From: Candidatus Latescibacterota bacterium
Lineage (GTDB): Bacteria > Latescibacterota > UBA2968 > UBA8231
Length of the DNA: 64,000 bases
NCBI GenBank assembly: GCA_965248355.1
Contig: OZ252098.1
Span: 2,720,001 to 2,784,000 of the forward strand
Direction: 5' to 3'
Each line of letters starts with the position of its first letter. The first letter of the stretch is position 1. Shown piece by piece: positions 11,601 to 28,198 of the stretch. The notes under the pieces were generated by a model that saw only the letters and a program-made list of their open reading frames with translations, was not told the origin of the DNA and ran no database searches. Made by a program: the position numbers and the translations under genes.

Positions 11601-11689
11601 AGGAGGCCCCCGCGGAGCAGGTCCGGCTGTTCGGCGATGGGGATGCTGAGGATGAGGATGAGGATGAGGATGAGGATGAGGCGGTATGA
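8602..11689 (+). CDS. DUF1156-domain adenine-specific DNA methyltransferase, with one frameshift near 11417
   Basis: [14 protein letters not shown] (DUF1156), DPFAGGG motif [10 protein letters not shown] motif IV; plausible C-terminus (ARELAYRLY...[11 protein letters not shown]) continues in another frame after the T-run at ~11416-11418. Confidence 0.85.
11642..11680 (+). repeat. GAGGAT hexamer microsatellite encoding an acidic EDEDEDEDE tail
   Basis: gatgctgaggatgaggatgaggatgaggatgaggatgag read directly. Confidence 0.85.
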
Positions 11690-11797
11690 GCATGTCCTGA
11701 ATGGGAAATTTCGATGATGCAGCGGATGGAAAGGGAAGAAGGAAGACGGTGTACGAAGCAGATGATGGAACTCACCCTCGAACCAAGGACTGACGCT

Positions 11798-13027
11798 ATG
11801 TCCCAACCAGAGAAGAAGAACCAACTCCATCTCCCGACCCTTTCTATTTCGGGCTTTCGGGGTATCAGGGCGCTTTCCATTGAGCGGTTGGGGCGGGTGA
11901 CTCTGCTGGCAGGCACGAATGGTGTCGGCAAGACGACCGTTCTGGATGCCGTGCAAGTGTACGCCAGCCGAGGTCGTCCCTCTGTAATCGGCGAATTACT
12001 GAAGAGCCGCCAAGAGATTTCGACGGCCATTAACGAAAAGGGAGAGCAGGAATTCGTCGCTGATCTTGTAGCACTCTTCAACGGCAGAAATGTCAAAGGG
12101 GAATCCTACATTTCGGTTGGACCGACACAGGAGACGAGCCAGCTCAGGATCGAGGAGACCCAATTGAGCGCGGACCAGACTTCGAAACTTGCAGGGAAGT
12201 CCATACCTGGGTCATCAGACTATACTCGAGCATTCAAGGTCAAATTTGCCCACACCGAACAGACCCTTCCGTGGGTGCTACCCACCTACGGTTCATCGGT
12301 GAGTCGAGGGATCAAAGATCAGAGTGGGAGCGCGTACCTTTACGCCCAGAGTCTGTTTGACGACGGTAAGTCCCCAAAGCGCATGAGATGTCAGCCCTTG
12401 GGTCCGGGTCTCCTAAGCAACGAGGAGATTACCAAATTGTGGGCTGGTATAGCTCTGACAGATGTTGAGGACCGGGCGGTCGATGCATTGAAGTGGATCG
12501 TCGGAAGTGAAGTGGACAGAGTGGCCGTCATTGACGAAGGTGCCCCAAAGAAAGAAGATCGTAGTAAGGGAGGATTGCAAAGAGTATGGGAGGCGGTAGT
12601 GGGTGACGTGCCCACTGACGAAGGCCATGGTCGGCGGGTGGCCATAAAGCTGCGAGGGCAGTCAGGCCGAATCCCCCTTAACAGCTTGGGTGACGGGGCA
12701 CTCCGTCTGTCAGGAATTACGTTGGCACTGGCGAACAATCAGGACGGCTTTCTGATCATCGATGAAGTCGAGAACGGTTTTCACCATTCGTTGCACCGCG
12801 AGTTCTGGCACATGGTCCTTAGTTCCGCGGAAGAAAACAACGTGCAAGTTCTGGCTACGACACACAGTTTCGACTGCATGCAGGGCTTCGCTCAGGCCTT
12901 AGGTGATTGTAGCGAGATCGAGGGGGCACTCGTGCGAATAGAGAAAGAGAATGGGGAACACCGGGCGGTCGAGTACTCGGAGCGCAATCTTCAGGCCGCC
13001 AGCGAGCATGGCATTGAGGTGAGATAG
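11798..13027 (+). CDS. ABC-type ATPase (AAA_15/AAA_21-like)
   Basis: GTNGVGKTT Walker A, LGDG signature, IIDEVENGFH Walker B/D-loop, ATTHS H-switch. Confidence 0.85.
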   Translation: MSQPEKKNQLHLPTLSISGFRGIRALSIERLGRVTLLAGTNGVGKTTVLDAVQVYASRGRPSVIGELLKSRQEISTAINEKGEQEFVADLVALFNGRNVKGESYISVGPTQETSQLRIEETQLSADQTSKLAGKSIPGSSDYTRAFKVKFAHTEQTLPWVLPTYGSSVSRGIKDQSGSAYLYAQSLFDDGKSPKRMRCQPLGPGLLSNEEITKLWAGIALTDVEDRAVDALKWIVGSEVDRVAVIDEGAPKKEDRSKGGLQRVWEAVVGDVPTDEGHGRRVAIKLRGQSGRIPLNSLGDGALRLSGITLALANNQDGFLIIDEVENGFHHSLHREFWHMVLSSAEENNVQVLATTHSFDCMQGFAQALGDCSEIEGALVRIEKENGEHRAVEYSERNLQAASEHGIEVR

Positions 13028-13029
13028 CT

Positions 13030-13667
13030 ATGGACGGCAAGGAGCGCGTACTTCTTGTGGAGGGGCAGGACGACAAGCATGTGGTATTGAACTATTGTAG
13101 GCGTCATGCGGGAATGCCAAAGTTCTGCATTTCGGAGAAGGAGGATGAGGCAGGTATGGGGGGGATAGATGTGCTTCTCGAAGATCTGGGCGCCGAGATC
13201 CTGGTTCCAGGCCGCAAGGCCATAGGTGTCCTCGTGGATGCAGACAGGGATCTGGCTGCCCGGTGGATGGCAGTCTCGCAGAGACTTCGTGAGGAGGGAA
13301 TTGAGGTGCCTGGAAGTCCAGAGCCCAGTGGTACTCTGATACAGGAAACTGGCAACAGCCCGCGCGTGGGTATCTGGCTTATGCCCGACAATAGTTCATC
13401 CGGTGAACTTGAGGATTTCGTCTCCGCGATGATCCCCGAGGACGACCCGATTTGGCCCTTGGCTGAAAGCTATGTCGATGGCATCCCAAAGGAACATCGG
13501 AAGTTCACAACAAAGAAGATTCGTCGGGCAAAGGTTCATGCCTGGTTGGCGACAAGAAGGAAACCCAAGCAAATGGGGGCGGCCATCGGCGCTGGGATTT
13601 GTGCGTACGAGGTTCACTCAGCGAGGGATTTGGCAATTGGCTGAAGCAACTATTCTCGTTGGAGTGA
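13030..13667 (+). CDS. DUF3226-like TOPRIM-fold protein, frameshift near 13595
   Basis: LLVEGQDD, VDAD, GIWLMPDN...GELEDF, KAKVHAWLA-type motif; one added G restores the end GDL...FGNWLKQLFSLE* at 13667. Confidence 0.75.
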
Positions 13668-13906
13668 CCGTGTGCACATCGAGCAGATTGAGAGCAAGAA
13701 CTACCGCTCGTATCAAGCAAACCCGCGTTCCGACCCCGCGGATGACTGTGGTTGTCGGAGCATGGCTTTGGAAGTCCACCGTGTGCGGCCTATTCTCCTT
13801 ACGTCATGGAGGGCCTAACGGAGACCGCCGACACCGCGGGCCGTTGCGACCTCCGGAAACTGTGAGCGCAGGGAAGAGGAGACCGATTAGAGTCCTTGGA
13901 GATAGA

Positions 13907-14830
13907 GTGAACCCTGCAGAACAAATCGCCGAGATCACATGGGAAAGGATCAAACAGTCGCGCGACGTGAGAGTCAGGTTGGGCGAGGAGACCCTTAGCG
14001 ACCTACTCATTCTGGATTTCGTACGTCTGATGGGGAATCGTACCAAGCTATTTCAAAGCACCAAGATTCAGGAGGCGAGGCGAGGTACGGATCTGGAGAT
14101 CCGGATTCACAAGGGTGGCAATCGTGCCATCGCGATTGTCGTGCAAGCCAAGAAACTGTATCCATCGCAGAGGTATGATGATCTCAACGCCAAGGTGAAA
14201 TCGTCCCGCTGCTTTCAGATAGATGTACTTGAACGGTATGCCCGGAGTATGTGCGCCATCCCACTATACCTTCTGTACAACTACGTGGATCTCCCCGACC
14301 TGCAATCACACTGGCATTGCTGTAAGCCCCTCGATCAAAGACAACTGGGTTGTACCCTGGTGCCGAGCTGGAACATCCGCCGGGCGATTGAAACTCACGG
14401 ATGTAGGAAGTTCGACTGGATTCATGAATCGTCGGCTGCATTGCCTTGGCGGTGCCTTTTTGACTGCCCGCAGGGCCGTGAGTACCGATTACTACCCTCG
14501 GCTGAGCGCAGCCTGTCGATATTTCTTGGCAAGTTCCTTGCACAAGCGGATGAGACGCAGGACTATGATCTGGTCCGCTCGGGCAATGAGCAAACCTATG
14601 ACTGGGTACGGTTTGAACCGGTTGATGGTGGCGGGCCGGATTGGCTGTGGTCCCGGGATGATGCAACGCTATCGGATGATGATGTTCGGAGACTACAGCA
14701 GGAGATACGACGAGGGGAGAGATCGCTCAGGCCTTGGGAGGGTTCTGACTCAAAGGTGCGGCGCGGGCGAAGTGCTTCGCCCTCGTCTGTTCCCCGTCAT
14801 TCTCTATTGGTCAAGGAGGAGGCAGAGTGA
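13907..14830 (+). CDS. DUF6615-like PD-(D/E)xK nuclease-fold protein
   Basis: GTG at 13907 after GGAGA; GEETLSD, E.RRGTDLE, VVQAKKL, PLYLLYN motifs. Confidence 0.65.
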   Translation: MNPAEQIAEITWERIKQSRDVRVRLGEETLSDLLILDFVRLMGNRTKLFQSTKIQEARRGTDLEIRIHKGGNRAIAIVVQAKKLYPSQRYDDLNAKVKSSRCFQIDVLERYARSMCAIPLYLLYNYVDLPDLQSHWHCCKPLDQRQLGCTLVPSWNIRRAIETHGCRKFDWIHESSAALPWRCLFDCPQGREYRLLPSAERSLSIFLGKFLAQADETQDYDLVRSGNEQTYDWVRFEPVDGGGPDWLWSRDDATLSDDDVRRLQQEIRRGERSLRPWEGSDSKVRRGRSASPSSVPRHSLLVKEEAE

Positions 14831-16053
14831 CGGATACGGACCTCTCCCGCAGGCTCCGCCTCGGTGAGGACTCCGTCTTGGAGTTCAAGCGTGTCCTGCT
14901 GTCCGGCAGCCGCGTCACCAGCCCGAATCGGAACGAGTTCGCCGACGAACTTGCCGCCTTCGCCAACGGCCGTGGCGGGACCTGCGTCCTTGGGGTGGAC
15001 GACGATACCCACGAGGTTCTGGGTATCGGCTTCGAATCCCTGGATGCAGTCGAGACCTGGGTCCGCGAAATCTGCAACGACTCGGTAACGCCCGCCCTCG
15101 ACGCGGACATCCTGAAGCTTGAACTGCCCGACGCCGCGGGGGGGCTGCTCCCGGTCCTGCGCATCGATGTGCCGCGCAGCCTCTTCGTCCACCGGAGTCC
15201 GGGCGGATACTTCCGCAGGATCGGCAGTTCGAAGCGCGAGATGTCCCCCGAGGTGCTGGCGCGGCTCTTCCAGGAGCGCAGCCAGAGCCGCATGATCCGC
15301 TTCGATGAATCGCCGGTACCCCGCACCGGGCCGGGCGATCTCGACTTTGCCCTGACGCGCCGGTTCCTTCGGGAGGATTCCCCGGAGAGCCTCGATGAGG
15401 AGGCGGCGCGCAAGCTTGGTCTGGTCGCGGATGACGAGAACGGGGAGGCGCGCCTCACTCTTGCCGGCGTCCTCCTTTGTACGCGGGAGCCGCGACGGTG
15501 GCTTCCCCACGCCTGCATACAGGCCGTCAGCTACGCGGGTGAGCGCACCGACGCTGACTATCAGACCGACGCCCGCGACATCGGGGGGCCGCTGGACGAG
15601 CAGGTTGCAGACGCACTGCACTTCGTGCAGCGGAACATGCTCGTGCGGGCGACCAAGACCACGGCCCGGATCGAGCGCCCGCAGTTCAGCGAGCGGGCTG
15701 TCTTCGAGGCCTTGGTGAACGCCGTGGCTCACCGCGACTACTCGGTGGCGGAAGCGCGGATCCGCCTGCATCTGTTCGGAGACCGCCTCGAGCTCTACGT
15801 TCCCGGTGCCCTGGCGAATACGCTCGCGCCGGACAGCCTGCACCTGCGGCAGGCCAGCCGCAACGAACTCATCGTCTCCCTGTTGGCTCGCTGCCGCGCC
15901 CCGGAGGGACTCGGACGGACGCACCTGATGGACCGGCGCGGCGACGGCGTGCCGATCATCCGGGATGAGTGCCGACGGCTTTCGGGGAGCCTCCCCGAGT
16001 ACAGCCTGATCGACGACAGCGAGCTGCGGTTGGTGATCCAGGCGGCGGCCTAG
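14827..16053 (+). CDS. Schlafen/AlbA_2 domain plus HATPase_c_4-type ATP-binding protein
   Basis: GEDSVLEFK, AFANGRGG..VLGVDD, EALVNAVAHRDY, RN..I...L, MDRRGDGV. Confidence 0.85.
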   Translation: MTDTDLSRRLRLGEDSVLEFKRVLLSGSRVTSPNRNEFADELAAFANGRGGTCVLGVDDDTHEVLGIGFESLDAVETWVREICNDSVTPALDADILKLELPDAAGGLLPVLRIDVPRSLFVHRSPGGYFRRIGSSKREMSPEVLARLFQERSQSRMIRFDESPVPRTGPGDLDFALTRRFLREDSPESLDEEAARKLGLVADDENGEARLTLAGVLLCTREPRRWLPHACIQAVSYAGERTDADYQTDARDIGGPLDEQVADALHFVQRNMLVRATKTTARIERPQFSERAVFEALVNAVAHRDYSVAEARIRLHLFGDRLELYVPGALANTLAPDSLHLRQASRNELIVSLLARCRAPEGLGRTHLMDRRGDGVPIIRDECRRLSGSLPEYSLIDDSELRLVIQAAA

Positions 16054-16055
16054 AC

Positions 16056-16751
16056 GTGCATGACTTGAAGCGAATCGTCTGTCTGGCCAACTCCCGGAAG
16101 CTGGCGGGGCGGTGTATCGCCGGCCGGGAGTGCATCGAGGGTCAGGGGGCCGGCCCTTGGATCCGGCCTGTGAGCGCGCGCGAGAACCAGGAAGTGTCCG
16201 AGTACGAGCGTCAGTACGAGGACGGCAGCGATCCCCGGGTCCTCGACGTCATCGACGTCCCGGTCCTGGCGCCGCAGCCGCCGCAGCCGCCGCAGGAATA
16301 TCAGACGGAGAACTGGTTGCTCGATCCCGGCTTCTACTGGGAGAAGGCCGGCGTCTTCCCGCGGCGTGAGATGCCCGAGCTGCTGGATCCCGTCGCCCCG
16401 CTATGGATTGACAGCCAGAGCACCTACCACGGTCTGAACGACAGGATCTGGCTCGAATCGGCGGACTCGGTATCCGATTCATTGAGACTGATCCATGTCG
16501 AGCGGCTGAGCCTTGAGGTATTCAAGCCCGGTGAAGCCTTCGGAAATTCCAAGCGCCGCGTACAGGGTCAATTCACCCACAGGAGTACGAAGTATGGACT
16601 CTGGGTCACCGATCCCAGATACGAACGGGAGTACCTGGCAAAGCTGGATGGCACCTATGAGATCGGTGAATGCTATCTCACGATCAGCCTGGGGGAACCA
16701 TTCGAGGGGTGGTGCTACAAGCTGATCGCTGCGATCATTCGGGCGGAATAG
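16056..16751 (+). CDS. Dual OB-fold domain protein
   Basis: KRIVCLANSRKLAGRCIAG, WIRPVS, QTENW, VTDP, LTISLGEPF..WCYKLIAAII; adjacent to DUF488 genes. Confidence 0.75.
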   Translation: MHDLKRIVCLANSRKLAGRCIAGRECIEGQGAGPWIRPVSARENQEVSEYERQYEDGSDPRVLDVIDVPVLAPQPPQPPQEYQTENWLLDPGFYWEKAGVFPRREMPELLDPVAPLWIDSQSTYHGLNDRIWLESADSVSDSLRLIHVERLSLEVFKPGEAFGNSKRRVQGQFTHRSTKYGLWVTDPRYEREYLAKLDGTYEIGECYLTISLGEPFEGWCYKLIAAIIRAE

Positions 16752-16761
16752 CGGGAACCTC

Positions 16762-17397
16762 ATGAGCGCCGCCCGCCATCCCGTTCTCACCATCGGCCAT
16801 TCCAACCACGCCCTGGACACCTTCATCGCGCTCCTGCAACGGCACGGCGTCACGGCCCTGGCCGATGTCCGTTCGGCGCCCTACAGCCGCTTCCATTCCC
16901 AGTTCAACCGGGAATCGTTGGCCGGAAGTCTGGAGAGAGAGGGGATCGAGTACGTCCATCTGGGTCAGGCCCTGGGTGGCCGCTCCGACGACCCTGCCTG
17001 CTACGAGGACGGGCGCGTCCGCTATGACCGTGTCGCGGGAACGGAGACGTTCCGGCAGGGCCTGGCGCGCGTGGTTCAGGGCGCCGACGATCACCGCATC
17101 GCGCTCCTGTGCGCGGAACGGGAGCCTCTCGAATGCCACCGCACCCTCCTCGTGGCCCGGGCCTTGCACGAGCGCGGCATCAAGGTCGCCCATATCCACG
17201 CCGATGGGAGGCTGGAGTCCCACGACGAGGCGATGGAGCGGTTGCTTCAACTCTTCAATCTGGATCCGGACGGGGATCTGTTCCGTTCGGCGCAACCACG
17301 GGAAGAGCTGGTCGCCGAGGCCATCGCGCTGCAGGCGAGACGCGTCGCCTTTGTGGACAGGAACCTGGCCGCCGCTTCGGGGGAATCGAACCCATGA
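16762..17397 (+). CDS. DUF488 family protein
   Basis: TIGHSNH, LADVRSAPYSR, LGGR, LLCAEREPLECHR. Confidence 0.9.
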   Translation: MSAARHPVLTIGHSNHALDTFIALLQRHGVTALADVRSAPYSRFHSQFNRESLAGSLEREGIEYVHLGQALGGRSDDPACYEDGRVRYDRVAGTETFRQGLARVVQGADDHRIALLCAEREPLECHRTLLVARALHERGIKVAHIHADGRLESHDEAMERLLQLFNLDPDGDLFRSAQPREELVAEAIALQARRVAFVDRNLAAASGESNP

Positions 17398-17831
17398 AGG
17401 TCTCCACCATCGGCTTCACCAGGAAGCCGGCCTCTCGGTTCTTCGACTTGCTGCGCGGGTCGGGCGCCAGGCGCGTCGTCGACGTGCGGCTCAACAATGG
17501 GTCGCAACTGGCCGGCTTCGCCAAGAAGGAGGACCTCGCCTTCTTTCTCGGGGAGTTGTGCGGGATGGAGTACGTTCACCTGCCCGCGCTGGCGCCGACG
17601 AAGGAGATGCTGGACGACTACAAGAAGCGGAAGGGAGACTGGAAGACCTATGAGGACCGCTTCCTCGCCCTCATGAGCCAGCGGCGGATCGAGGAGACGG
17701 TCCCCAGGGAGATCGTCGCCGACGGCTGCCTGTTGTGCAGCGAGGACAAGCCGCACCACTGCCACCGCCGGCTGGTTGCCGAATACCTGAAGCAGCATTG
17801 GGGCGAAGTGGAGATCGTCCATCTCGGATAG
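17394..17831 (+). CDS. DUF488 family protein (second, short type)
   Basis: ATG at 17394 overlapping upstream stop; TIGFT, DVRLNN.SQLAGFAK, LLCSEDKPHHCHRRLVAEYL. Confidence 0.9.
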   Translation: MKVSTIGFTRKPASRFFDLLRGSGARRVVDVRLNNGSQLAGFAKKEDLAFFLGELCGMEYVHLPALAPTKEMLDDYKKRKGDWKTYEDRFLALMSQRRIEETVPREIVADGCLLCSEDKPHHCHRRLVAEYLKQHWGEVEIVHLG

Positions 17832-17838
17832 GAAAGCC

Positions 17839-19017
17839 ATGCGAATTGAGCAGATCGAAATCCGGAATTACCGCGCCTTCCGCGACGTGAGGCTGACCAA
17901 CCTGCCGTCATTGACCGTAATCGTTGGAGCCAACGGCTCGGGCAAGTCGACACTCTTCGACGTGTTCTCCTTTCTGAAGGACGCGCTGGCCCAGAATGTC
18001 GCCACTGCCGTGGCGCGCCGCGGCGGCTTCCGCGAGTTGACCAGCCGCGGTGAGAAGGGGCCGGTGGGAATCACAGTCAAATTTCGGGAGAGCGGCGGGC
18101 GCCTGGCTTCGTACATACTTGAAGTGGCGTGCGACGAGAACCGGGTCGTCGTTGCCCGAGAAGTCTTGCGCTATCGCAGAGGCAAGGGGGCAGGTCGCCC
18201 CTGGCATTTCGTCGACTTCTCTCGTGGAAGGGGAACGGCGATCACGAATGAGTCTGTCTATGGTCAGGAAGGGGCAGTCGAGGAGCGGGAAGAATACGAG
18301 CTTGACGATCCAAGCATTCTGGCGATCAAGGGCTTGGGTCAGTTCCGCGAGTTTCGAGTCGTCTCGGAGTTTCGCGGGCTCATCGAGAACTGGCACGTCT
18401 CCAACTTCCACATCACCGATGCGCGGCCGATCGCCGAAGCCGGTTATGCCGAACACCTGTCCACCCGGGGAGACAACGTCGCACAGGTGGCCCAATACCT
18501 CTACGAGAACCATGCCGACCGTTTCGAGCGCGTGCTGGAGGCCATGAGGCGGCGCGTCCCCGGCGTGAGCGGCGTTGAACCCAGACCGACGGAGGACGGA
18601 CGTCTCGTCTTGCGCTTTCGGGACGGCAGCTTCAAGGACCCCTTCATCGCCCGCGATGTCTCGGACGGCACGATCAAGATGTTCGCCTACCTGGTGTTGC
18701 TGTACGATCCCAAGCCCCATCCCCTGCTGGCGGTGGAGGAGCCCGAAAATCAGCTCTATCCCGAATTGCTGGCAGAGTTGGCGGAGGAGTTTCGGGACTA
18801 TGCCCGGCGCGGGGGTCAGGTCTTCGTCTCGACGCACTCGCCCGACTTTCTGAACGGGTTGGGGCTGGAAGAGATCTACTGGCTGATCAAGAAGGATGGC
18901 TTCACCACCGTGCGGCGGGCGTCCGACAGCGAGTTGCTGGGCGGCCTCGTGGCAGAGGGAGACCTGCCGGGCGCCCTCTGGAAACAAGGGCTCTTCGAGG
19001 GCGTTGGATTCCGATGA
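17839..19017 (+). CDS. ABC-type ATPase (AAA_21-like)
   Basis: GANGSGKST, VSDGT signature, VEEPENQL, VSTHS. Confidence 0.9.
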   Translation: MRIEQIEIRNYRAFRDVRLTNLPSLTVIVGANGSGKSTLFDVFSFLKDALAQNVATAVARRGGFRELTSRGEKGPVGITVKFRESGGRLASYILEVACDENRVVVAREVLRYRRGKGAGRPWHFVDFSRGRGTAITNESVYGQEGAVEEREEYELDDPSILAIKGLGQFREFRVVSEFRGLIENWHVSNFHITDARPIAEAGYAEHLSTRGDNVAQVAQYLYENHADRFERVLEAMRRRVPGVSGVEPRPTEDGRLVLRFRDGSFKDPFIARDVSDGTIKMFAYLVLLYDPKPHPLLAVEEPENQLYPELLAELAEEFRDYARRGGQVFVSTHSPDFLNGLGLEEIYWLIKKDGFTTVRRASDSELLGGLVAEGDLPGALWKQGLFEGVGFR

Positions 19018-19587
19018 GCCGAATCGTGTTCCTGCTGGAGGAAGACTCGATGAAGGTCCTGCTGGAAGGCTTGTTGCCGAGGTTGTTTCCGGGACTGTCT
19101 TTTTCTGTGCCTGTCTCACGAGGGCAAGCAGGACTTGGAGAAGAGCATCCCGCGCAAACTGAAGGCTTGGCGCGAGCCTGGGGTGCGTTTCGTCGTGGTG
19201 CGGGATCAGGACGGCGGGGACTGCCGGCGGGTGAAGGCACGCCTTGTCCAACTGTGCCGGAGGACGAGGCGGCGGGACGTGCTTGTCCGGGTGGTCTGTC
19301 GGGAGTTGGAAGCGTGGTACGTCGGCGAGCCGGATGCCCTCGCGCGGGCTTTCCCTGAAGTACGGCAAAGCGCGCTGCGAGAGCTGGTCCGCAGCCGGTA
19401 CCTGAACCCCGATGTTGTCGTACGGCCTTCCGATGCCATTGCCAAGGTGATCCCGGGGTTCCAGAAGAGGTCCGGCGCGAGACGCATGGCTGAGGTTCTA
19501 TCGCGCAACAACCGCTCGCGCAGCTTTCAGGTGTTCGTCGAAGGAATCGAAGGTCTGTACACCTCCACGCAAACCGCGATTGGATAG
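19014..19587 (+). CDS. DUF4276-like TOPRIM-fold protein, frameshift in T-run at ~19100-19104
   Basis: IVFLLEEDSM in one frame; HEGKQDLEKSIPRKL, VRDQD, ELEAWY, NRSRSFQ in the next frame. Confidence 0.8.
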
Positions 19588-19592
19588 CGACG

Positions 19593-22500
19593 ATGGCCAT
19601 GACCAACCACGAGCGCGTCGGCAAGGCGATGGAGTGGCTTCGCCAAGGACTGGCGCCGTTCGTCGAACGTGAGCTGAACGACAAGGTCAAGTCCAACACG
19701 ATCCACATGGATGTCCTTCGGCGCGTTGAGACCGACAAGCCGTTCCGCAAGTGGGACGCGGCGGCTCTCCTCAAGCTGATGTGGGACACGTGGAACGAGG
19801 TCTTCCGCGACACCCTCGGCCCCGCGGAGCGCAGCCTGGTGTCGGAGTTGCGGGACTGGCGTAACAAGTGGGCGCACCAGGAGCGCCTCTCCAGTGACGA
19901 CGCTGACCGCGCCCTCGACTCGGTGGAGCGGCTGCTGACCGCGGTCTCGGCGCCGCAGGCGGCCGAAGCGGCCAAGCTGAAGCTGGAGTTGCGCCGCCTG
20001 GTGATCGACGAGCAGGTGCGCGGCGAGCAGCGCCGGGTCGCCGGCGGACTGGTCGAGGCGGTGAGCGAGGGCGGGTTGAAACCGTGGCGCGAGGTGATCA
20101 CGCCCCACGCCGACGTGGCCAGCGGCCGATACCAGCAGGCGGAGTTCGCCGCGGACCTGTGGCAGGTGAAGCTGGGCGAGGGCGCGGAGGAGTACCGCGA
20201 CCCCGGGGAGTTCTTCCGGCGCACCTTCCTGACCGGGAGCCTCCGGGGGTTGCTGGCCGGGGCCGCCCGGCGCCTCGCCGGCCAGGGCGGCGATCCCGTG
20301 GTGCAGTTGCAAACCAACTTCGGCGGCGGCAAGACGCACTCCATGCTGGCCCTGTATCACCTGTTCTCCGGGATCCCGGCGCGGGAGCTGTCCGGCATGG
20401 ACGAGGTGCTGGGGGAGGCGGGTGTCGACATCCCCCAGGAGATCCGGCGCGTGGTGCTGGTTGGCAACCGCATCTCGCCGGGGAACCCGGTGACCAAGGA
20501 TGACGGGACAGAGGTGCGCACCTTGTGGGGTGAGCTGGCCTGGCAGCTCGGCGGCCGGCAGGCCTTCGAGCGGGTGCGGGCCGACGACGAGCGGGCCACC
20601 AGCCCCGGCGACGCCCTGCGGGAGCTGCTCAACGAGCACGGCCCCTGCTTGGTGCTGATCGACGAGTGGGTCTCCTACGCGCGCCAACTGCACGACGGCG
20701 CCGACCTGCCGGCGGGCAGCTTCGAGACCCAGTTCACCTTCGCCCAGGCGCTGACCGAGTCGGTGAAGGTGACGGGCAACTGTCTGCTGGTGATCTCGCT
20801 GCCGGCATCCGACACCTCCGACTCGGGGTCCCCCCACACCGAGGCGGACGATGCCGAGGTGGGGGGGCTTCGGGGGCGCGGCGCCCTGGACCGGCTGCGC
20901 AACGTGCTGGGCCGGGTCGACGCGCCGTGGAAGCCGGCCAGCGCCGAGGAGAGCTTCGAGATCGTGCGCCGGCGGCTGTTCGAGCCTCTGGCCGGGGGAG
21001 ACGCCTTCAAGCATCGCGATCTGACGGCCCGCGCCTTCGGGGAGCTGTACCGGCAACAGCGGGTGGAGTTTCCCGCCGAGTGCCGAACCGCCGATTACGA
21101 GCGCCGCCTCCAGGCCGCCTACCCCATCCATCCCGAGATCTTCGATCGCCTCTACACGGACTGGTCCTCCCTCGCCCGGTTCCAGCGCACCCGCGGCGTG
21201 CTGCGGCTCATGGCGGCGGTGATCCACAGCCTGTGGGAGCGGGGGGACCGCAATCCGCTGCTGCTGCCCTCCACCATCCCCATCGACGACGACCGCGTGC
21301 GCAACGAGTTGACCCGCTACCTGTCCGACAACTGGACGCCGGTCATCGACAAGGACGTGGACGGCCCGGGCTCCCTGCCGGTGGCCATCGACGGGAGGGC
21401 GCCCAACCTCGGCAAGCTCTCGGCCACGAGGCGGGTGGCGCGCACCGTCTACCTCGGCTCCGCCCCCATGACCGCGGCAGCCCACCGCGGGATCGACGAC
21501 GGCCGGGTCAAGCTCGGCTGCGTCATGCCGGGGGAATCCCCGGCCGTCTTCGGCGACGCCCTGCGCCGGCTGGCCGCGGAGGCCACCTACCTCTACCAGG
21601 ACGGCCCCCGGCAGTGGTACTCCACGCAGCCCACGGTGACCAAGCTGGCGGAGGACCGCGCCGAGCAGATGGCGCGCAACCCCGACGCCGTGGCCATGGA
21701 GCTGGAGGAGCGGCTGAAGAAGGACCTGCGCGCCTCCGGGGACTTCGGGCGCATCCACGCCCTTCCCAGCTCGGGCGCGGACGTGCCGGACGACCTCGAC
21801 GCCCGGTTGGTGGTGCTCTCGGCGGAGCACCCCTGTTCCCGGGAGCCTGACAATGCGGCGGAGGTCGCTGCCCGGGAGATCCTGGAGACTCGCGGCAACA
21901 CGCCCCGGCTGTTCCGCAACACGTTGATGTTCCTGGCGGTGGACCGGGTGCGCTATCAGGACCTGGACGAGGCCCTGCGCCGGTACCTGGCGTGGGATTC
22001 GATCCTGGAGGAGAAGGAGGAGCTGAACCTGGACCCGCATCAGACCCGCCAGGCCCAGACACAGTTGAAGGCGGCCGACGACGCGGTCACCGCGCGAGTG
22101 CCGGAGGCTTACCAGTGGCTGCTGGTGCCGGGGCAGGAGAAGCCCGACTCCGCCGTCGCTTGGCAGGCCATCCGTCTGTCCGGGGCGGGCCCCCTGGCGG
22201 AACGGGCGAGCCGGCGGCTGCGCAACGAGGAGTTGCTGGTCACGGGCCTCGGGCCGACGATCCTGCGCAAGCACCTCGACGACGTGCCCCTGTGGCGCGG
22301 CGAGCACGTGGAGGTGCGGCAGCTCGTGGACGACTTCGGCCGTTACCTGTACCTGCCCCGCCTCGGTGGGCCCCAGGTGCTGATGCGCGCGATCCAGGAC
22401 GGCGTGGCCCAGCTCACTTGGGCAACGGACGCCTTCGCCCTCGGCGAGAGCTATGACGAGTCGGCGGGTAGGTACCCCGGCCTGCGGGGGGGCCGTACGG

Positions 22501-22913
22501 TCGAGGTCTTACCCGAGAGCGCAGAGCTGGTCGTGAAGCCGGAGGTGGCCCGCCGGCAACTGGACGCGGAGACGAAGCCTCCGGCCCCGACATCGGAACC
22601 TGTGCCGACTCCCGGCGGTGAGGGGGACTCGCAAGCAGATGAGGATCCGACCAAGCCACCGGCTCCCCCGGAGAAGAAGGCGCGGCGCTATCACGGCACC
22701 GTGACCCTGGACACCGGGCGCGTGGGGCGCGACGCCGGCCGCATTGCCGAGGAGGTGGTGGCCCACCTCTCCGGGTTGGTGGGCGCCCAGGTGACGGTTA
22801 CCCTGGAGATCGATGCCGAGATCCCGGAAGGCGCGCCGAACCACGTGGTGCGCACGGTGACCGAGAACAGCCGCACGCTGAAGTTCGAGAACCATGAGTT
22901 CGAGGAGTCGTGA
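19593..22913 (+). CDS. Swt1-like HEPN plus DUF499 AAA+ ATPase
   Basis: N-terminal RNKWAH (Rx4H); LKPWREVITPH.DV, EFAADL, QTNFGGGKTH, VLIDEW, AYPIHPE, FQRTRGVLRLMA. Confidence 0.9.
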   Translation: MAMTNHERVGKAMEWLRQGLAPFVERELNDKVKSNTIHMDVLRRVETDKPFRKWDAAALLKLMWDTWNEVFRDTLGPAERSLVSELRDWRNKWAHQERLSSDDADRALDSVERLLTAVSAPQAAEAAKLKLELRRLVIDEQVRGEQRRVAGGLVEAVSEGGLKPWREVITPHADVASGRYQQAEFAADLWQVKLGEGAEEYRDPGEFFRRTFLTGSLRGLLAGAARRLAGQGGDPVVQLQTNFGGGKTHSMLALYHLFSGIPARELSGMDEVLGEAGVDIPQEIRRVVLVGNRISPGNPVTKDDGTEVRTLWGELAWQLGGRQAFERVRADDERATSPGDALRELLNEHGPCLVLIDEWVSYARQLHDGADLPAGSFETQFTFAQALTESVKVTGNCLLVISLPASDTSDSGSPHTEADDAEVGGLRGRGALDRLRNVLGRVDAPWKPASAEESFEIVRRRLFEPLAGGDAFKHRDLTARAFGELYRQQRVEFPAECRTADYERRLQAAYPIHPEIFDRLYTDWSSLARFQRTRGVLRLMAAVIHSLWERGDRNPLLLPSTIPIDDDRVRNELTRYLSDNWTPVIDKDVDGPGSLPVAIDGRAPNLGKLSATRRVARTVYLGSAPMTAAAHRGIDDGRVKLGCVMPGESPAVFGDALRRLAAEATYLYQDGPRQWYSTQPTVTKLAEDRAEQMARNPDAVAMELEERLKKDLRASGDFGRIHALPSSGADVPDDLDARLVVLSAEHPCSREPDNAAEVAAREILETRGNTPRLFRNTLMFLAVDRVRYQDLDEALRRYLAWDSILEEKEELNLDPHQTRQAQTQLKAADDAVTARVPEAYQWLLVPGQEKPDSAVAWQAIRLSGAGPLAERASRRLRNEELLVTGLGPTILRKHLDDVPLWRGEHVEVRQLVDDFGRYLYLPRLGGPQVLMRAIQDGVAQLTWATDAFALGESYDESAGRYPGLRGGRTVEVLPESAELVVKPEVARRQLDAETKPPAPTSEPVPTPGGEGDSQADEDPTKPPAPPEKKARRYHGTVTLDTGRVGRDAGRIAEEVVAHLSGLVGAQVTVTLEIDAEIPEGAPNHVVRTVTENSRTLKFENHEFEES

Positions 22914-23062
22914 GTACGGATACCCCAAGCTGGCGGCCCCGTCTATTGGTCTGAACACTTGGTCTCGGGGATGTTGCCTCGGTTGTCGAGGAAAAGCGCC
23001 GGAGGGGGCTGGTCGCTGTCGATGCGGGTCCCGCTCGCAGACACAGCGAGGGACCATGCAGG

Positions 23063-23171
23063 ACCCAGGAGGACTCGAACATATTCCCTAAATGATTGAT
23101 TTATTGTGATTTAGGACTCCGTTGTTGGGTCCTTACCCACGAGATTGCCCACCCTGGAGAGGGGACCCCCC
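23063..23171 (-). repeat. 109-bp inverted repeat, left copy (att arm plus 18 bp of tRNA core, inverted)
   Basis: Reverse complement of 26080-26188 with 2 mismatches. Confidence 0.95.
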
Positions 23172-23297
23172 TATTTGCTCCTCGAAGGCGCCGGGGTCGC
23201 GCGGCCTCGGAGGGGAAGGGTGGATGCTCCACTCGCCGAGCCCGCGCACCCCTGCACCCCGTTGACACGGAACCCCCTTAGCGATCAAACGTCTCTA

Positions 23298-23448
23298 TGG
23301 AGCCGGGCTCCTATTCCCTTCCGGCGTTGTGATCGCCCCTCCGGGTCTTCTCCTCCCGGGGGGGGCGGTCTTTTTGGGAAGGTGCCGGGTTTCGCGGTGG
23401 TTGTGTGCGGCAAGGGCCCGGCTCCAGCGAGGAGCCGGGGAACCCCGG
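23298..23448 (+). promoter_or_regulatory. Structured leader with intrinsic terminator-like hairpin and alternative stems
   Basis: TTGACA at 23262; 13-bp stem 23298-23310/23414-23426; hairpin 23331-23370 followed by TTTTT; competing hairpin 23417-23439. Confidence 0.5.
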
Positions 23449-23469
23449 AGAGGGGAAAAGCGCGATCCG

Positions 23470-23685
23470 ATGACCGAAACCGAGAGGCGCCGAGCGACCG
23501 AAACCGAGAGGCGCCGAGCGACGGCCCAGGCCCACAGTGACGGCCTGGCCGTCGAGTGTTCCGTCTGTGGCGCCCGCCCCGGCGCCCCGTGCGTGGCTAC
23601 CCGGTGGAGCGACAACGGCCGCCAGGTTCACCGCTTCCGCCGCTACGAGAACCATGCGCAGCGACTTCCCGGTTCCTTGCGATAA
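23470..23685 (+). CDS. Small phage-type zinc-finger protein
   Basis: CSVCGARPGAPC...H..R; purine-rich RBS upstream; 24-bp tandem duplication at the 5' end. Confidence 0.55.
   Translation: MTETERRRATETERRRATAQAHSDGLAVECSVCGARPGAPCVATRWSDNGRQVHRFRRYENHAQRLPGSLR
23472..23522 (+). repeat. Perfect 24-bp tandem repeat (GACCGAAACCGAGAGGCGCCGAGC x2)
   Basis: Read directly; encodes TETERRRA twice. Confidence 0.9.
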
Positions 23686-23717
23686 CGGCGACTATCGAGA
23701 CTGCGACGGCGGCGCCG

Positions 23718-24326
23718 TCAGTGCCCGCCGCAGGCGGATTCGTTCACGCGCAGGTACTCGACAACAAAGCGGTCCATGTGCTCGGACACGCCTTGCAGGA
23801 TGAAACTCGCGTCACCTCCGCCGTGCGTTCCGGCGGCCCCGGCGTGCCAGGTCTGAGCCCGCCCGACTATATCCAACGCCTCGTCATGCAGCCATTTGTT
23901 GTATCCGATGCCGATTGAGAACGCGGACCCTACAACGTTGACGTTGACATACAGGTCGTGGTCCGCTTCCGCGTCGTACAGCCGCGCGGCCCGCAACCGG
24001 CTTTCCGCCGCCGTCTGGATGCGTTCCCTCGTCAACCCGATCTCCTCCGCGTCTTCGGGCAGGAATTCAACGATCAGATCCAACGGCCGGCACGCGCTCC
24101 AGAGTTCGAAGCAGCCGCGGCTCGTAGATGGGTCGTCGGGGTCCACGCATGGACGCTGCCACTCGATCGTGCTCCGGACAGAGTTCAACAAGGCTTCCAA
24201 GCCGCCGGCGGGCGGCGGAACGGGCTTCTCGGCCGGGGGCGTCTCTCCGGCCAGCCGCCCGTCGAAGCAGAGCACAACCAAGAGGGCCCCAGCCCATACG
24301 AGAGCAAAGCGGATCTTGGTGGTCAT
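23718..24326 (-). CDS. Secreted hypothetical protein
   Basis: GGAGG RBS, N-terminal signal peptide, globular C-terminal domain with cysteines. Confidence 0.7.
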   Translation of the reverse strand: MTTKIRFALVWAGALLVVLCFDGRLAGETPPAEKPVPPPAGGLEALLNSVRSTIEWQRPCVDPDDPSTSRGCFELWSACRPLDLIVEFLPEDAEEIGLTRERIQTAAESRLRAARLYDAEADHDLYVNVNVVGSAFSIGIGYNKWLHDEALDIVGRAQTWHAGAAGTHGGGDASFILQGVSEHMDRFVVEYLRVNESACGGH

Positions 24327-24399
24327 TTCGGCCTCCGTTTCGTGGGGGGAGAGGCCGGGAAGGTTAAGGGCTCCGCCGTCTGACGGCCACGGTCAGGGT

Positions 24400-25404
24400 T
24401 CAGCTCAGGCCGGCCACGCCGCGGGCGTCGCCAAGGGGCATCCCGGCGGCCTGCAGGTCCTTCACCACGCGGGCGCGCTGCGCCAGGCTGTCCGGCGTCT
24501 CTATCTGGTTCCAGTCAAGGCGGACCTCGCGCTCCAGCTTCGCCTCCAGCTCTTCGCGGATGGCGTCCCCGATAGCCTCCAGGTGCAGCACCCGCCACCG
24601 GCGCGTTGTTTCCCGCGTGTTGCTGCCGGTGCTGCCGTGCACTAGCTCGGACAGAACCCCGCAGGCGGCCAACACGTCGGTCTGGACGGCCTCCCGCAGT
24701 GCTACCAGGGGCGCGGTAGGGGCCGGGCCCAGGTTTTCCAGTGGGTGGCCTCCGGTGCCCGTTTGCCCGCCGACTACATGCGGACTCACAATCACCATTC
24801 CGCCTTCCTCAAGGCGCTTCTGAAATTGCTCCATTTGCAGGCTTGTCAGGTCCGGCAGGCTCGCCACCTTGCCGACGGGGATACCGGCCTCGCGCTCCAG
24901 GGCCTTCTCGATCCGGCCGGCCAGGGCGGACGTGCCACTGGCGACGGCCCAGGGCGCGCGGCCTTTCCAGGGTTGCGAAGCGGCGGCGTTGAGGCGGACA
25001 TGTACGACACCTTCAGCGGGGTAGCGCCGGGTCACGGTCGCGGAGGGCGCCGTCAGCTCGGCCTTGTAATGCCACGTCTCGGGAACAGGGCCACCGGTCA
25101 CGTCCCAGGAAGCGGCCGGCAGCAACACGGGGCGGCCGGTGTCGGGGTCAATCTCGATGGCGGCCAGGAACTCGCCACGGTCAACGAGGCTGCGGCCGAT
25201 CAATCCCCGGAGGCTCGCGGGGAAAGCGAATCCCTGCGCCTCGATGGTCGCGGCCACCAGGGCGCGCTCGTACAGCAGGCCGGCAATCGATACCGCGGCT
25301 ACGGCGCCGGCGTCCACGGCCCGGGTCCCGGCGAGGGCCTCCAGCTCGGCGACTCGAAGGGTGGAGTATCCGGTAGCGGCTGCGCGCTGGCGGAAGGGCC
25401 ACAC
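24400..25404 (-). CDS. Phage portal protein (HK97-like, divergent)
   Basis: L.DRGEFLA.I, VVHVRL....PWKGRAP, VLAACGV..EL patterns; directly downstream of a prohead protease. Confidence 0.7.
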   Translation of the reverse strand: MWPFRQRAAATGYSTLRVAELEALAGTRAVDAGAVAAVSIAGLLYERALVAATIEAQGFAFPASLRGLIGRSLVDRGEFLAAIEIDPDTGRPVLLPAASWDVTGGPVPETWHYKAELTAPSATVTRRYPAEGVVHVRLNAAASQPWKGRAPWAVASGTSALAGRIEKALEREAGIPVGKVASLPDLTSLQMEQFQKRLEEGGMVIVSPHVVGGQTGTGGHPLENLGPAPTAPLVALREAVQTDVLAACGVLSELVHGSTGSNTRETTRRWRVLHLEAIGDAIREELEAKLEREVRLDWNQIETPDSLAQRARVVKDLQAAGMPLGDARGVAGLS

Positions 25405-25908
25405 TTACAGAATCTCCAGGGGCAGACCAACGTCCTCAGCAGGGCGTTGGTCGCGGGCCTCGACGGTCGCGGACGGGTAGGCCGGCCGATCCACTACGCC
25501 GATACCCACAAGCTCGGCGGCGGTCACGACCTCGACGCCTTGCGGGTCCATGTAGCCGTCCCGGACGTAGAACTCGGCAGACATGCCCCGAAGCACGCCA
25601 GCTTTCACCAGGGCCAGGGTGTCGTCGGCCTCGCGGGTCTGTGGCAAGGTGGCGCTCACCGTCAGGGCCTCGCCGCTGTCCCGCAGCTCCAGGCCGGCCC
25701 CGCTACGGGCCAGCGGGCGGGCGCGGTCGTGCTGGACGTTCAGGATGGCGTCCACGTTGGACAGATCCCCGAAGGCTCCCGGGTCGATCCGTTCCCCGCG
25801 GCCCGGGGCGACCTCGCCGTAGGCCACAAGGGTTCCCTCCAGGGTGCGGCCGTCGCCTTCCTGGCGCAGGGTCAGGGCCACATACCTGTAGCGTTTCTCT
25901 GGAGACAC
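25405..25908 (-). CDS. HK97-family prohead (capsid maturation) protease
   Basis: ERIDPGAF, QHD (catalytic His), G.LRGMSAEF (catalytic Ser), VVDRPAYPSA. Confidence 0.88.
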   Translation of the reverse strand: MSPEKRYRYVALTLRQEGDGRTLEGTLVAYGEVAPGRGERIDPGAFGDLSNVDAILNVQHDRARPLARSGAGLELRDSGEALTVSATLPQTREADDTLALVKAGVLRGMSAEFYVRDGYMDPQGVEVVTAAELVGIGVVDRPAYPSATVEARDQRPAEDVGLPLEIL

Positions 25909-25978
25909 GTCGTGTTCCCCCTTCTCTCGCAGTACGTTGAGGCCGGCCCAGGGGAGCGGTTCCCCCGGGCCTTCCTCA

Positions 25979-26080
25979 TCAGGCCAGTTTCAGGTCCCGC
26001 AGGGTGAAGCTCGCCGCGTCCACGACCTTGAAGGCGGCCAGCAAGGCCGCGGTCAGGTGTACTTGACCTTCGGCCGCTTG
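25979..26080 (-). pseudogene. C-terminal fragment of a probable major capsid gene, cut at the inverted repeat
   Basis: Reads QAAEGQVHLTAALLAAFKVVDAASFTLRDLKLA* with coding-like codon usage; followed by a hairpin, then the protease gene. Confidence 0.4.
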
Positions 26081-26194
26081 GGGGGTCCCCTCTCCAGGGT
26101 GGGCAATCTCGTGGGTAAGGACCCAACAACGGAGTCCTAAATCACAAGAAATCAATCATTTAGGGAATGTGTTCGAGTCCTCCTGGGTGCACCA
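26080..26194 (+). repeat. Right inverted-repeat copy / attR: arm repeats, IHF site and 24-bp tRNA core
   Basis: GTGGGCAA/GTGGGTAA tandem at ~26099-26118; AATCAATCATTTA (WATCAANNNNTTR) at 26150-26162; core at 26171-26194. Confidence 0.9.
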
Positions 26195-26278
26195 CTTTCG
26201 CCGCCGTACATGCAAGGGGTTGCGGGACACATCTTCTCTCGCAACCCCTTCGTCGTGACGGTCTTCCAAGGTGACCGC

Positions 26279-28198
26279 ATGCCCGCTGATCCCAACGAAT
26301 CCTCCCCCCCGCCGCTGACCGGCACCCCGCCCGAACGGCTGGTGCGGGACTTCGCGAGCCGGGGGATCGTCCTGCTGTCCCCCGAGAGCCTCGGCATCCC
26401 CCCCGAGATCCACCAGCGGATCTACGAGCAGGAGAAACAGGCCTCCCAGGCCGGGGAGCCCGTGACTCCGGCCAGCATCCCCGAGATCCTGGAGCTGCTC
26501 AACGCCCCGGGCCTCGTGCGGGCCTGCGACCGGCTCCTGGGCGAAAACTGGGCCGTCGTTCCCTTCAGCCACAACGCCACCTTCGCCAGCGGCGGGCGGG
26601 ACCAGCACTGGCACAAGGACGACAACGCGCCCTACAACGGCCGCAAGCTGCGCCACCACCAGGCGGTGCAGGTGGAGATGCTCTACTACCCGCAGGTCGT
26701 GGCTCCGGAGATGGGGCCCACGGCCACGGTGCCCTACTCCCACTACTGGACCTTTGACCACGAGGAGAACCACGACAACTTCGCCGGCGCCGATCACCTC
26801 GACTTCGACTACCACCTCAGCGGCATGGAGGGGCAGGCCGTGAGCGGCCCCGACTCCAAGTACGATCCCGAGGAGATCCGCCGGGGCCGCACCGCCCACG
26901 ACCGGCGCATGCGGGAGGCGGTGACCGACACGGGGTGGCCCCTGGTGCGGTCCTTCGAGGCGGCGCCGCTGGCGGCGGGCAGCGTCGTGCTCTACTCCCA
27001 CAACACCTTCCACCGAGGCAACCACCGCCGCGACGACTGGCGCACCTGGCCCGACCGGCCCCGCTTCATGTGGCGCTTCTGGCTCTACCGGACCACCGAC
27101 GCGCCTGCCGACTCGGACGGACCCGAGGTCGACTGGAGGGAGCCCGGCACCGACCCGATGACCGGCATCGATCTGTCCGGGGCGGACGACGATGTCACCG
27201 CTGTCTGGCGCTACCACCATCACTGGATGCGGACGGGGCGGCCGCCGCCGCCGCGGCCCGAAGCCGCCGCCCTTTCGCCGCCGGCGCGGGAGCGGGAGGC
27301 CGAGCTTCTGTTCGCGCGGCTGCACGCCCGGCACGAGGCCGCCGAGCCGGTCCGCGTCGGCGCCGCCTACCAGCTCGCCTCCATGGGGGACACGGCCCTG
27401 GCGGTGCGGCTTCTGGGCGAGGCCCTCCGCGATCACCGGGAGAGCGTGCGCCGGGCCGCCACCTACGGCCTGATCACGGTTGGAGAAGAGGCGGCCGGGG
27501 CCTTTCTCGAGGCCGCGGCTTCGCCCGTCAAGTGGGTCCGCAAGGCGGGAGTCCACGGCCTGGGCGACGCCGCCCCCCTCACCGGAGAGGTCCTGGAAGC
27601 CGTGACCGCGCGCCTCCACGAGGACCCGTCGGTGTACGTCCGCGCCGTCGCCGCCGGCGCCCTGGGCTGCCTCGGCCGCCGGGCCGCGGCCACGGGAACC
27701 GGTCGCGAGCGGATCCCGGACTGCTTCCGCGCCCTCCTGCGGAGCCTGGACCGGGAGGAGAACCGGCTGGCCATGGACCGGGCCCAGAACCGGAGCATCA
27801 AGATGGTGCGGCCCACCGACGACAGCGACATCTGCGAAGGCGGCGGCGTCGACTTCGGCCTGGAGCGGTTCGCGCCGGTGCGCTCCGCCGTGCGCGAGAA
27901 CGCCCTGTGGTCGATGGTCATCCTCTGCTCCCACGGGGCCGCCGCCGCGGGCGACGCCCTGGAGCCGGCGATCCGGACCCTGAAGGAGGTGGTCCGGACC
28001 GACGAGAACGTCATCTCCTTGGGCTACGCCATGGACGCCCTGGGCCGCCTCGCCCACCTGGGTCCGCAGGATCCGGCGGAGGCGGAGATCCCGGCCCTCG
28101 CCGATCTGAGGGCGGAGTTGCGGGCCGTCCTCGACCAGTCTCCCGTGCACTGCTGGGAGTCCCTGGTGCGAGGCGGGCTGAGCTTTACGCCGGACTGA
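26279..28198 (+). CDS. PhyH-family 2OG-Fe(II) dioxygenase fused to HEAT repeats
   Basis: QHWHKD, GPTATVPYSH, FHRG; C-terminal HEAT-like repeats (SVRRAATYGL, WVRKAGVHGLG, YVRAVAAGALG). Confidence 0.75.
   Translation: MPADPNESSPPPLTGTPPERLVRDFASRGIVLLSPESLGIPPEIHQRIYEQEKQASQAGEPVTPASIPEILELLNAPGLVRACDRLLGENWAVVPFSHNATFASGGRDQHWHKDDNAPYNGRKLRHHQAVQVEMLYYPQVVAPEMGPTATVPYSHYWTFDHEENHDNFAGADHLDFDYHLSGMEGQAVSGPDSKYDPEEIRRGRTAHDRRMREAVTDTGWPLVRSFEAAPLAAGSVVLYSHNTFHRGNHRRDDWRTWPDRPRFMWRFWLYRTTDAPADSDGPEVDWREPGTDPMTGIDLSGADDDVTAVWRYHHHWMRTGRPPPPRPEAAALSPPAREREAELLFARLHARHEAAEPVRVGAAYQLASMGDTALAVRLLGEALRDHRESVRRAATYGLITVGEEAAGAFLEAAASPVKWVRKAGVHGLGDAAPLTGEVLEAVTARLHEDPSVYVRAVAAGALGCLGRRAAATGTGRERIPDCFRALLRSLDREENRLAMDRAQNRSIKMVRPTDDSDICEGGGVDFGLERFAPVRSAVRENALWSMVILCSHGAAAAGDALEPAIRTLKEVVRTDENVISLGYAMDALGRLAHLGPQDPAEAEIPALADLRAELRAVLDQSPVHCWESLVRGGLSFTPD

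Follow-up and report, generated by a model that had tools for sequence, protein, structure and literature searches.

Inverted copies of a tRNA-Arg attR half-site around a head-gene fragment in a Latescibacterota genome

The tRNA-Arg locus and its inverted arms

The DNA analysed here (the window) comprises 64,000 nucleotides, bases 2720001-2784000 of the single 5.5-Mb contig of a Candidatus Latescibacterota bacterium, and contains at one locus a 3.1-kb cassette bounded by two inverted arms (Table 1). The arms have 109 nt each, are 2908 nt apart and are 98% complementary (107/109), in agreement with an earlier note made from the letters of the DNA alone. In an inverted-repeat search of the 7.5 kb between 21000 and 28500 the runner-up pair has 30 nt and 73% complementarity. 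In the pairwise alignment the two arm mismatches are 23082/26169 and 23103/26148, leaving the inner 68 bp identical, and the similarity drops off sharply beyond both ends of the repeat.

The core at the outer end of the right arm is an exact direct repeat (24/24; matches in 0/100 shuffles) of the 3′ end of tRNA-Arg(ACG), the sole tRNA gene in the window, and native chromosomal flank lies beyond it. In the left arm the core is inverted. Its match to the tRNA end, at 23057-23080, has three mismatches, all within the last six bases, which leaves 18 contiguous core bases before the arm diverges from the core. The earlier description of an 18-bp tRNA-Arg core in each arm, with the full 24 bp on the right only, thus holds. 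Each arm also contains a match to the consensus of integration host factor (IHF) and two GTGGGYAA octamers 12 bp apart, as the same description stated and motif searches reproduced. As a pair the octamers occur genome-wide in these two arms only, and the IHF consensus, which we take to be WATCAANNNNTTR, has two matches in the window, both in the arms, where 0.09 are expected. Together the tRNA core, the IHF-consensus site and the arm-type octamers agree with the proposed att-type nature of the arms. The G+C content of the arms is 53% and that of the middle part 40%, with a genome value of ∼70%.

The arm sequence is confined to this locus. A search of the genome and its relatives for further arm copies, as proposed in the earlier note, yields two copies in the 5.5-Mb genome, both at the present locus, and no part of the arm in any of 60 related genomes. 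Matches of any kind to the arm query were obtained in 10 of 61 genomes, the present one included, and in the relatives these concern the tRNA end only, plus the flank in one same-genus genome (G006). No exact match to a 22-mer of the arm was found in public genome, viral and metagenome contig collections.

In G006 (locus L004) the tRNA gene is directly contiguous with the right flank, with identities of 93% and 88%, and thus represents the empty site. The DNA that adjoins the tRNA in G006 starts here at 26171, and 4027-26170 is therefore inserted DNA. On sequence grounds the right arm represents a genuine attR, left by an element that integrated at the tRNA, because the exact 24-bp direct repeat coincides with an empty site in a relative and with an AT-rich arm carrying the IHF consensus and the paired octamers. 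No arm motifs are present just downstream of the tRNA, on the attL side. In two further same-genus genomes, G007 and G002, this tRNA site is occupied by other small islands, 4.8 and 2.7 kb in size, from which it follows that this tRNA is an insertion hotspot. Within the stretches examined, no second tRNA core with up to four mismatches was found in either island.

Table 1. Features of the tRNA-Arg locus (window coordinates)
Feature	Position	Strand	Basis or remarks
tRNA-Arg(ACG)	3950-4026	+	ARAGORN; last 24 bp (4003-4026) are the attL/attB core
Defence island	4027-22913 (18.9 kb)	+	Pfam, PADLOC; absent from the G006 empty site
Spacer after HmaC	22914-23062 (149 bp)	.	Ends in a hairpin; right end is junction J1
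Left arm, inverted copy of attR half-site	23063-23171	-	Core 23063-23080; predicted IHF site 23089-23101; octamers 23133-23140 and 23145-23152
Unique non-coding stretch	23172-23469 (∼300 bp)	.	Weak terminator-like hairpin 23345-23375; homology to 4.22-Mb paralogue from ∼23348-23383
Phage-type zinc-finger protein, 71 aa	23470-23685	+	PF24623 E=1.6e-4, below cut-off; PHROG matches; paralogue passes cut-off
202-aa protein, N-terminal hydrophobic signal-like segment	23718-24326	-	No family match; DNA 90% identical to paralogue
Portal protein, 334 aa	24400-25404	-	No direct Pfam match; assigned via relatives
Prohead serine protease (S78), 167 aa	25405-25908	-	PF04586 E=1.3e-17; phrog_80, phrog_2263
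Major capsid gene, C-terminal remnant, ∼33 codons	25979-26079	-	Cut exactly at right arm inner edge (junction J3)
Right arm, P-type arm of attR	26080-26188	+	Octamers 26099-26106 and 26111-26118; predicted IHF site 26150-26162; first 18 bp of core
attR core	26171-26194	+	Exact 24-bp direct repeat of tRNA-Arg 3′ end; native chromosomal flank beyond
Flank gene, PhyH-like with HEAT repeats	26210-28198	+	Pfam; synteny with the neighbouring tRNA kept in G006, G007 and G002

Gene content of the cassette and related head-gene modules

The inner segment of the cassette contains six open reading frames (ORFs), which were scanned against Pfam and PHROGs, and as a seventh piece a remnant of a major capsid gene. 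The remnant was identified with a profile of five capsid homologues, searched against every open stretch of at least 20 residues in all six frames of 22900-26300, in which it is the sole hit (E=4e-4; next best 4.5). The capsid alignment begins with the codon immediately adjacent to the right arm, and the inner edge of this arm is therefore a breakpoint within a gene, rather than as a natural end of the element. Family matches of the six ORFs are limited to the zinc-finger protein and the S78 protease. The portal assignment derives from a 60%-identical paralogue that matches PF04860, from 7 of 11 homologous clusters with PF04860, and from a relative in another genome, G088, that matches with E=1.9e-18.

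The scans with Pfam and PHROGs reveal no recombinase or transposase domain in the cassette ORFs, as the earlier note had observed. Its description of the cassette as phage-satellite-like does not hold, however, since the cassette contains no integrase, regulator or replication gene and its capsid gene is truncated at the arm. A complete capsid and packaging set is likewise absent, with a capsid gene of ∼33 codons and no gene for the large terminase subunit (TerL). Judged by its gene content, the interior is a 2.9-kb fragment of a tail-less head-gene module. A promoter scan of 22800-26400 gives no sites, and four terminator-like hits were obtained in this region where 2.4 are expected. An Rfam search of the same region gives nothing at threshold, the best match being ar14 with 22 bits, far below its gathering score (58.8).

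The genome contains another remnant of this type, at positions 4216594-4224940. It contains a zinc-finger gene, a 305-aa ORF, a TerL gene split by an IS630-type transposase, a 365-aa capsid gene, a protease gene, a portal gene and a 198-aa gene. At the DNA level the cassette is 83% identical to this paralogue in the zinc-finger gene, 90% in the 202/198-aa gene and 68% in the protease and portal genes. The difference between 90% and 68% suggests that the 202/198-aa gene alone was recently exchanged between the two remnants. The two outer ends of the paralogue, i.e. the zinc-finger end and the 202/198-aa end, abut in the cassette at 23688-23694, and the two remnants are therefore circular permutations of one map, as would be expected of pieces derived from a circular or concatemeric element. 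No bounding inverted or direct repeats were found for the paralogue; its ends share a mutual similarity of ∼9 bp, which is too short for interpretation. No further TerL, capsid or 305-aa fragment was found elsewhere in the genome. The start of the cassette zinc-finger gene contains a perfect 24-bp tandem duplication (23472-23519), which repeats the residues MTETERRRA and is single-copy in the paralogue; one of the public sequencing runs discussed below, X1, differs at three bases inside it.

Relatives of the portal protein occur in 5 of 76 genomes of the order, the present genome included. In G088 an isolated module of TerL, capsid, protease and portal genes lies amid host genes (L047:10850-15599). 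Another genome, G095 (contigs C12, C9 and C6), contains tandem units of ∼10.5 kb in three variants, with genes for TerL, an HNH protein, capsid, an 870-aa ORF, a 141-aa ORF, portal and endolysin. These units are probably circular, and may represent a family of small capsid-forming elements or satellites. No tail genes or integrase were found in the paralogue, the G088 module or the G095 units, and no replication gene was recognised in the latter. A locus search with a portal alignment in public genome, viral and metagenome contigs gave no confirmed match, and tblastn of the portal protein against 50,697 phage records gave none. Within the genus, cassette DNA has only short or weak matches in nine genomes, and the species representatives are without the cassette.

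Capsid-forming phage-inducible chromosomal islands (cf-PICIs) are small phage satellites with their own head genes and no tail genes. The cassette and its relatives resemble them in the combination of TerL, capsid, protease and portal genes without tail genes, and in the related ∼10.5-kb G095 unit. The cassette itself, of only 3.1 kb, differs in that integrase, regulator and replication genes are absent and the capsid gene is not intact; nor is a helper known.

The inserted DNA between the tRNA and the cassette is largely a defence island. It encodes an Hma system, consisting of HmaA (4155-7742), HmaB (8602-11649) and HmaC (19593-22913), each with a PADLOC E-value of 0. The HmaC N-terminus contains a Swt1-like HEPN domain. 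Between HmaB and HmaC lie ∼8 kb of DNA with lower G+C content, containing PDC-M38A/B, a DUF6615 protein, a Schlafen-AlbA_2 protein, PDC-M45A/B and HEC-01 genes, and the Hma locus can thus be described as a defence island nested within a defence operon. The HEC-01-like ATPase pair (17838-19588) shows 77% identity to the island at the same tRNA-Arg site in G007 (L049:4003-5749). The pair is therefore part of an island content that is older than these species or was exchanged between them. A Pfam search revealed no integrase among the ORFs of the defence island. The spacer between HmaC and the left arm has no homologue in relatives, the homology stopping at the HmaC stop codon.

Conservation among strains and recombination machinery

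The occurrence of the cassette in other strains was analysed with Logan contigs of public sequencing runs. These contigs derive from a k=31 graph, in which rare variants are dropped and orientation across the 68-bp identical repeat is unresolvable; holes in the cover and a low-share run, X2, were left out of the evidence. Runs X3 and X5 show no differences from the window, possibly represent the source sample, and yield the contigs 22857-23133, 23142-23444, 24346-26109 and 26118-26626. At each of the four junctions these contigs extend by more than 31 nt in both directions, and they break only within the 68-bp identical part of the arms. The arm-specific mismatches remain on the contigs of their own flanks, an observation that is uninformative for flips within the inner 68 bp. 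A diverged strain is represented by run X7, which stems from a different study, and in which the contig 23142-26109 has 13 differences in 2969 positions (0.44%). Its flank contigs have 37/527 and 18/585 differences on the left and 18/469 and 41/944 on the right, and the right-flank contig begins at 26157, within the arm. A third study contributed run X1, which has 2 differences in 1572 positions (0.13%) over 24617-26188, and 33/345 and 17/198 in its flank contigs. The junctions covered in these diverged strains are J2, J3 and J4 in X7 and J3 in X1.

Since the same junctions occur in diverged strains of other studies, the structure is neither an assembly artefact nor private to this genome. Inverted repeats are a known source of mis-assembly, and the evidence consists of k-mer contigs rather than long reads. 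Nevertheless, an artefact of the single-contig assembly, through a mis-join or through collapse and flipping of a repeat, is exceedingly improbable, although the earlier note had named an assembly artefact as a possible refutation of its proposal, in view of the junction cover in X3 and X5, the junction cover in the diverged strains, and the location of the arm-specific mismatches on contigs of their own flanks. The other refutation that the note envisaged, a one-off rearrangement, comes close to the origin favoured below, except that the structure is common to several diverged strains.

Between strains the cassette differs by 0.13-0.44%, whereas the flanks differ by 3-10%. The structure, with a near-identical cassette amid diverged flanks, is therefore young, and the cassette appears several-fold younger than its surroundings. 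Combined with the 98% likeness of the arms, this agrees with the recent age that had been proposed for the repeat. The same trend is observed for the proteins across assemblies, with identities of 98-100% for the portal, protease and 202-aa proteins, 94-97% for HmaC and 93-97% for the flank protein; a second complete genome, of ∼5.57 Mb, is among the assemblies with the cassette proteins. In addition, four assemblies seem to hold HmaC and the flank gene on one contig with no cassette protein in the 90% clusters, a result that serves as a lead only, since the contigs were paired by their lengths. The X1 data contain one contig that crosses the entire right arm unbroken, and another that exits the cassette at 23167 into 106 letters that are not part of the window; the X1 strain may thus be without the left arm.

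These differences in divergence are also what would be expected of a non-autonomous, att-ended module that still moves between strains, its 3.1-kb cassette being inserted or exchanged at the tRNA-Arg core by the integrase of an outside helper. The low divergence of the cassette DNA and proteins relative to HmaC and the flanks, the assemblies that seemingly lack the cassette, and the apparently intact IHF-consensus and octamer motifs in the arms are all in favour of such a module. Moreover, an incoming element can mobilise in cis a decayed element that has kept its att sites, as known for cis-mobilizable elements (CIMEs; PMC5704250). However, two inverted att sites permit inversion but no excision, the left core is without its last six bases, and the arms are not the native ends of the element, since the capsid gene is cut at the arm. 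Nor did the searches yield a second site, a second cassette or an integrase, and a low divergence is also expected of a young insertion allele that spreads by ordinary homologous recombination. A moving module of this kind is therefore considered unlikely. A little less probable still is a live module with inward-facing attR-type ends that is exchanged or flipped by the integrase of a helper circulating in the same population, although it would explain both the near-identical cassette despite flanks diverged by 3-10% and the four intact small genes.

The recombinases of the genome offer no candidate for the integrase in trans that the earlier note had suggested. The genome encodes three PF00589 proteins, a XerD-like protein, a XerC-like protein directly after topA and a divergent 319-aa protein at 1.06 Mb, together with one serine recombinase of the large type (789 aa) at 0.99 Mb (genome 983906-986275). 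All of them lie far from the cassette, and an integrase in trans is left without a candidate because the PF00589 set is Xer-like or divergent and is complemented only by a distant serine recombinase. Searches with Pfam and PHROGs detected no cognate integrase in 4027-26170 and no phage-type integrase genome-wide, and no other cassette bounded by the same arms was found in the genome or in the relatives searched. The serine recombinase gene is situated ∼1 kb from a tRNA-Met gene (987453-987529), and may mark another integrated element.

Inverted repeats of 109 bp with 68 bp of perfect identity could also delimit an invertible segment, in which the 2.9-kb interior flips, by RecA over the 68 bp or by an integrase in trans, and so changes the strand exposed to read-through from the HmaC operon. 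Inversion of DNA between att sites that derive from a tRNA and face each other is within the capacity of tyrosine integrases (PMC5495485), and the k=31 contig graph leaves the orientation open. No dedicated recombinase is present in or next to the inverted-repeat segment, and a phage-type integrase is absent from the genome. In addition, 22800-26400 has no promoter-like site, the arm-specific mismatches stay with their own flanks in X3 and X5 (uninformative for the inner 68 bp), and no strand-changing joint is listed in the four runs, which weighs little in a contig graph that drops rare variants and cannot fix orientation. Inversion of the interior is therefore judged improbable. The only activity that remains conceivable for the segment is a rare RecA-type flipping across the 68-bp identical stretch, which is possible but of no obvious consequence.

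A transposon bounded by terminal inverted repeats, including an insertion sequence or a miniature inverted-repeat transposable element, was rejected, as there are only two arm copies, no autonomous partner and no target-site duplication; the cassette flanks ...CATGCAGG and GCACCACT... share no direct repeat. Nothing supports a telomere resolvase or a linear element.

Origin of the inverted duplication

On balance, the inverted repeat is probably the scar of a break-and-rejoin event by which the attR half-site was duplicated, with the new copy inverted, rather than the boundary of a working mobile or invertible cassette. This reading is preferred because the capsid gene breaks off where it meets the arm, the remaining parts of the element have disappeared, a recombinase is absent and the arm has no further copies elsewhere. 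We infer the following succession and type of breaks. A small tail-less phage-like element with TerL, capsid, protease and portal genes would have integrated into tRNA-Arg(ACG) and left a normal attR, consisting of the P-type arm and the 24-bp core, at 26080-26194. The hotspot would also have gained the 18.9-kb defence island between the tRNA and the remnant, and the element would have lost its integrase and most of its genes. One break-and-rejoin, or a short series of them, would then have copied the attR half-site (91 bp of arm and 18 bp of core) in inverted orientation beyond the last ∼2.9 kb, and would have cut the capsid gene in the same event or events. In its simplest form this would be an inversion of the terminal segment, in which a 109-bp staggered end was filled in and end-joined, such that the staggered stretch occurs once at each end in inverted orientation. 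The loss of the capsid N-terminus and of everything beyond it would have accompanied or followed this event. The genome encodes a Ku homologue, which makes end-joining repair plausible.

The same picture would also result if a second copy had integrated the other way round and a deletion had then taken place. Each of the two paths takes about three steps, and they could not be told apart. A specific form of the second path would ascribe the left junction to an integrase: a second copy of the element would have been inserted inverted at a secondary site after HmaC, and a deletion would then have removed the DNA from the capsid gene to 91 bp before the resident core. This would account for the left copy ending within the core, with its last six positions matching 3/6, as at secondary sites with partial identity in the overlap. 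The inner end of the repeat would be a mere deletion end point that needs no special explanation, and the cassette would preserve one native, colinear end of the element. However, the 24-bp identity block starts in the T-loop, which presumably places the crossover at the inner end of the core and not at base 18; with such a crossover a junction at a secondary site would share only ∼7 bp with the tRNA. In addition, no trace survives of the reciprocal junction or of the second element, and the possible arm-less state of X1 does not fit. An origin of the left junction by integrase action is therefore regarded as doubtful.

Several observations speak against a break-and-rejoin scar. Every concrete path requires about three steps (integration, inverted duplication and deletion), none of which has been reconstructed, DNA of a strain from before the event being lacking. 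The outer end of the repeat lies inside the 24-bp core, 6 bp short of its end, which could point to integrase action rather than to breakage at random. The cassette and arms are several-fold less diverged than either flank, with a jump on the right side at the arm, as fits a recent lateral spread as a unit. The portal, protease, 202-aa and zinc-finger ORFs are intact both here and in the paralogue, unlike what is expected after long decay. Finally, the possible absence of the left arm in X1 is neither predicted nor explained by the scar scenario.

Among described systems the locus is most similar to a decayed element at a tRNA hotspot, such as a grounded prophage or a CIME. The similarities include the direct 24-bp tRNA repeat at the far end of the island, the loss of integration genes, the accretion of islands on the tRNA side and the empty site in a relative. 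In contrast to a CIME, which keeps attL and attR in direct orientation around the remnant, the same attR half-site is present here twice, in inverted orientation. When the whole 22-kb island is considered the cores are direct, yet the attL has no arm-type motif. A CIME (PMC5704250) is thus the closest named kind, but the locus falls outside this class because the sites around the remnant are inverted.

For the proposed staggered break the nearest parallel is found in Drosophila, where inverted duplications of 46 bp to 1.9 kb, arising from staggered breaks, flank 17 of 29 inversions in the data cited from PMC1885836. The duplications described there resemble the present one, of 109 bp, in that a short non-repetitive sequence occurs once at each end, inverted and near-identical. 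The Drosophila case is eukaryotic, whereas the inversion proposed here has no un-inverted outgroup for comparison and one of its junctions involves a deletion. Inverted tRNA-derived att sequences on one chromosome are also acted on by integrases. According to PMC5495485, Int-pTN3 of Thermococcus acts in vitro on inverted att sites of tRNA origin and inverts the DNA between them, and HK022 Int brings about inversion between attP and a secondary site. As described there, these systems have an active integrase and no duplication of an arm, whereas at the present locus no integrase was found and a second orientation was not seen in the contigs. A narrow literature search, which forms a thin basis for novelty, found no published case of a prophage remnant enclosed by an attR half-site and its inverted duplicate.

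If the repeat is a break-and-rejoin scar, the locus provides a clean natural bacterial example of how an att half-site can become duplicated and inverted where a decaying integrated element ends. It would then also be a warning for programs that define islands and prophages by tRNA-fragment boundaries, as the inverted fragment would mark a rearrangement and not the end of an element. If, instead, the cassette is a live module, it would represent a new organisation of integrase-dependent DNA, with inverted ends instead of direct ones. The locus further draws attention to tail-less TerL-capsid-protease-portal modules, a little-known group present in this bacterial family.

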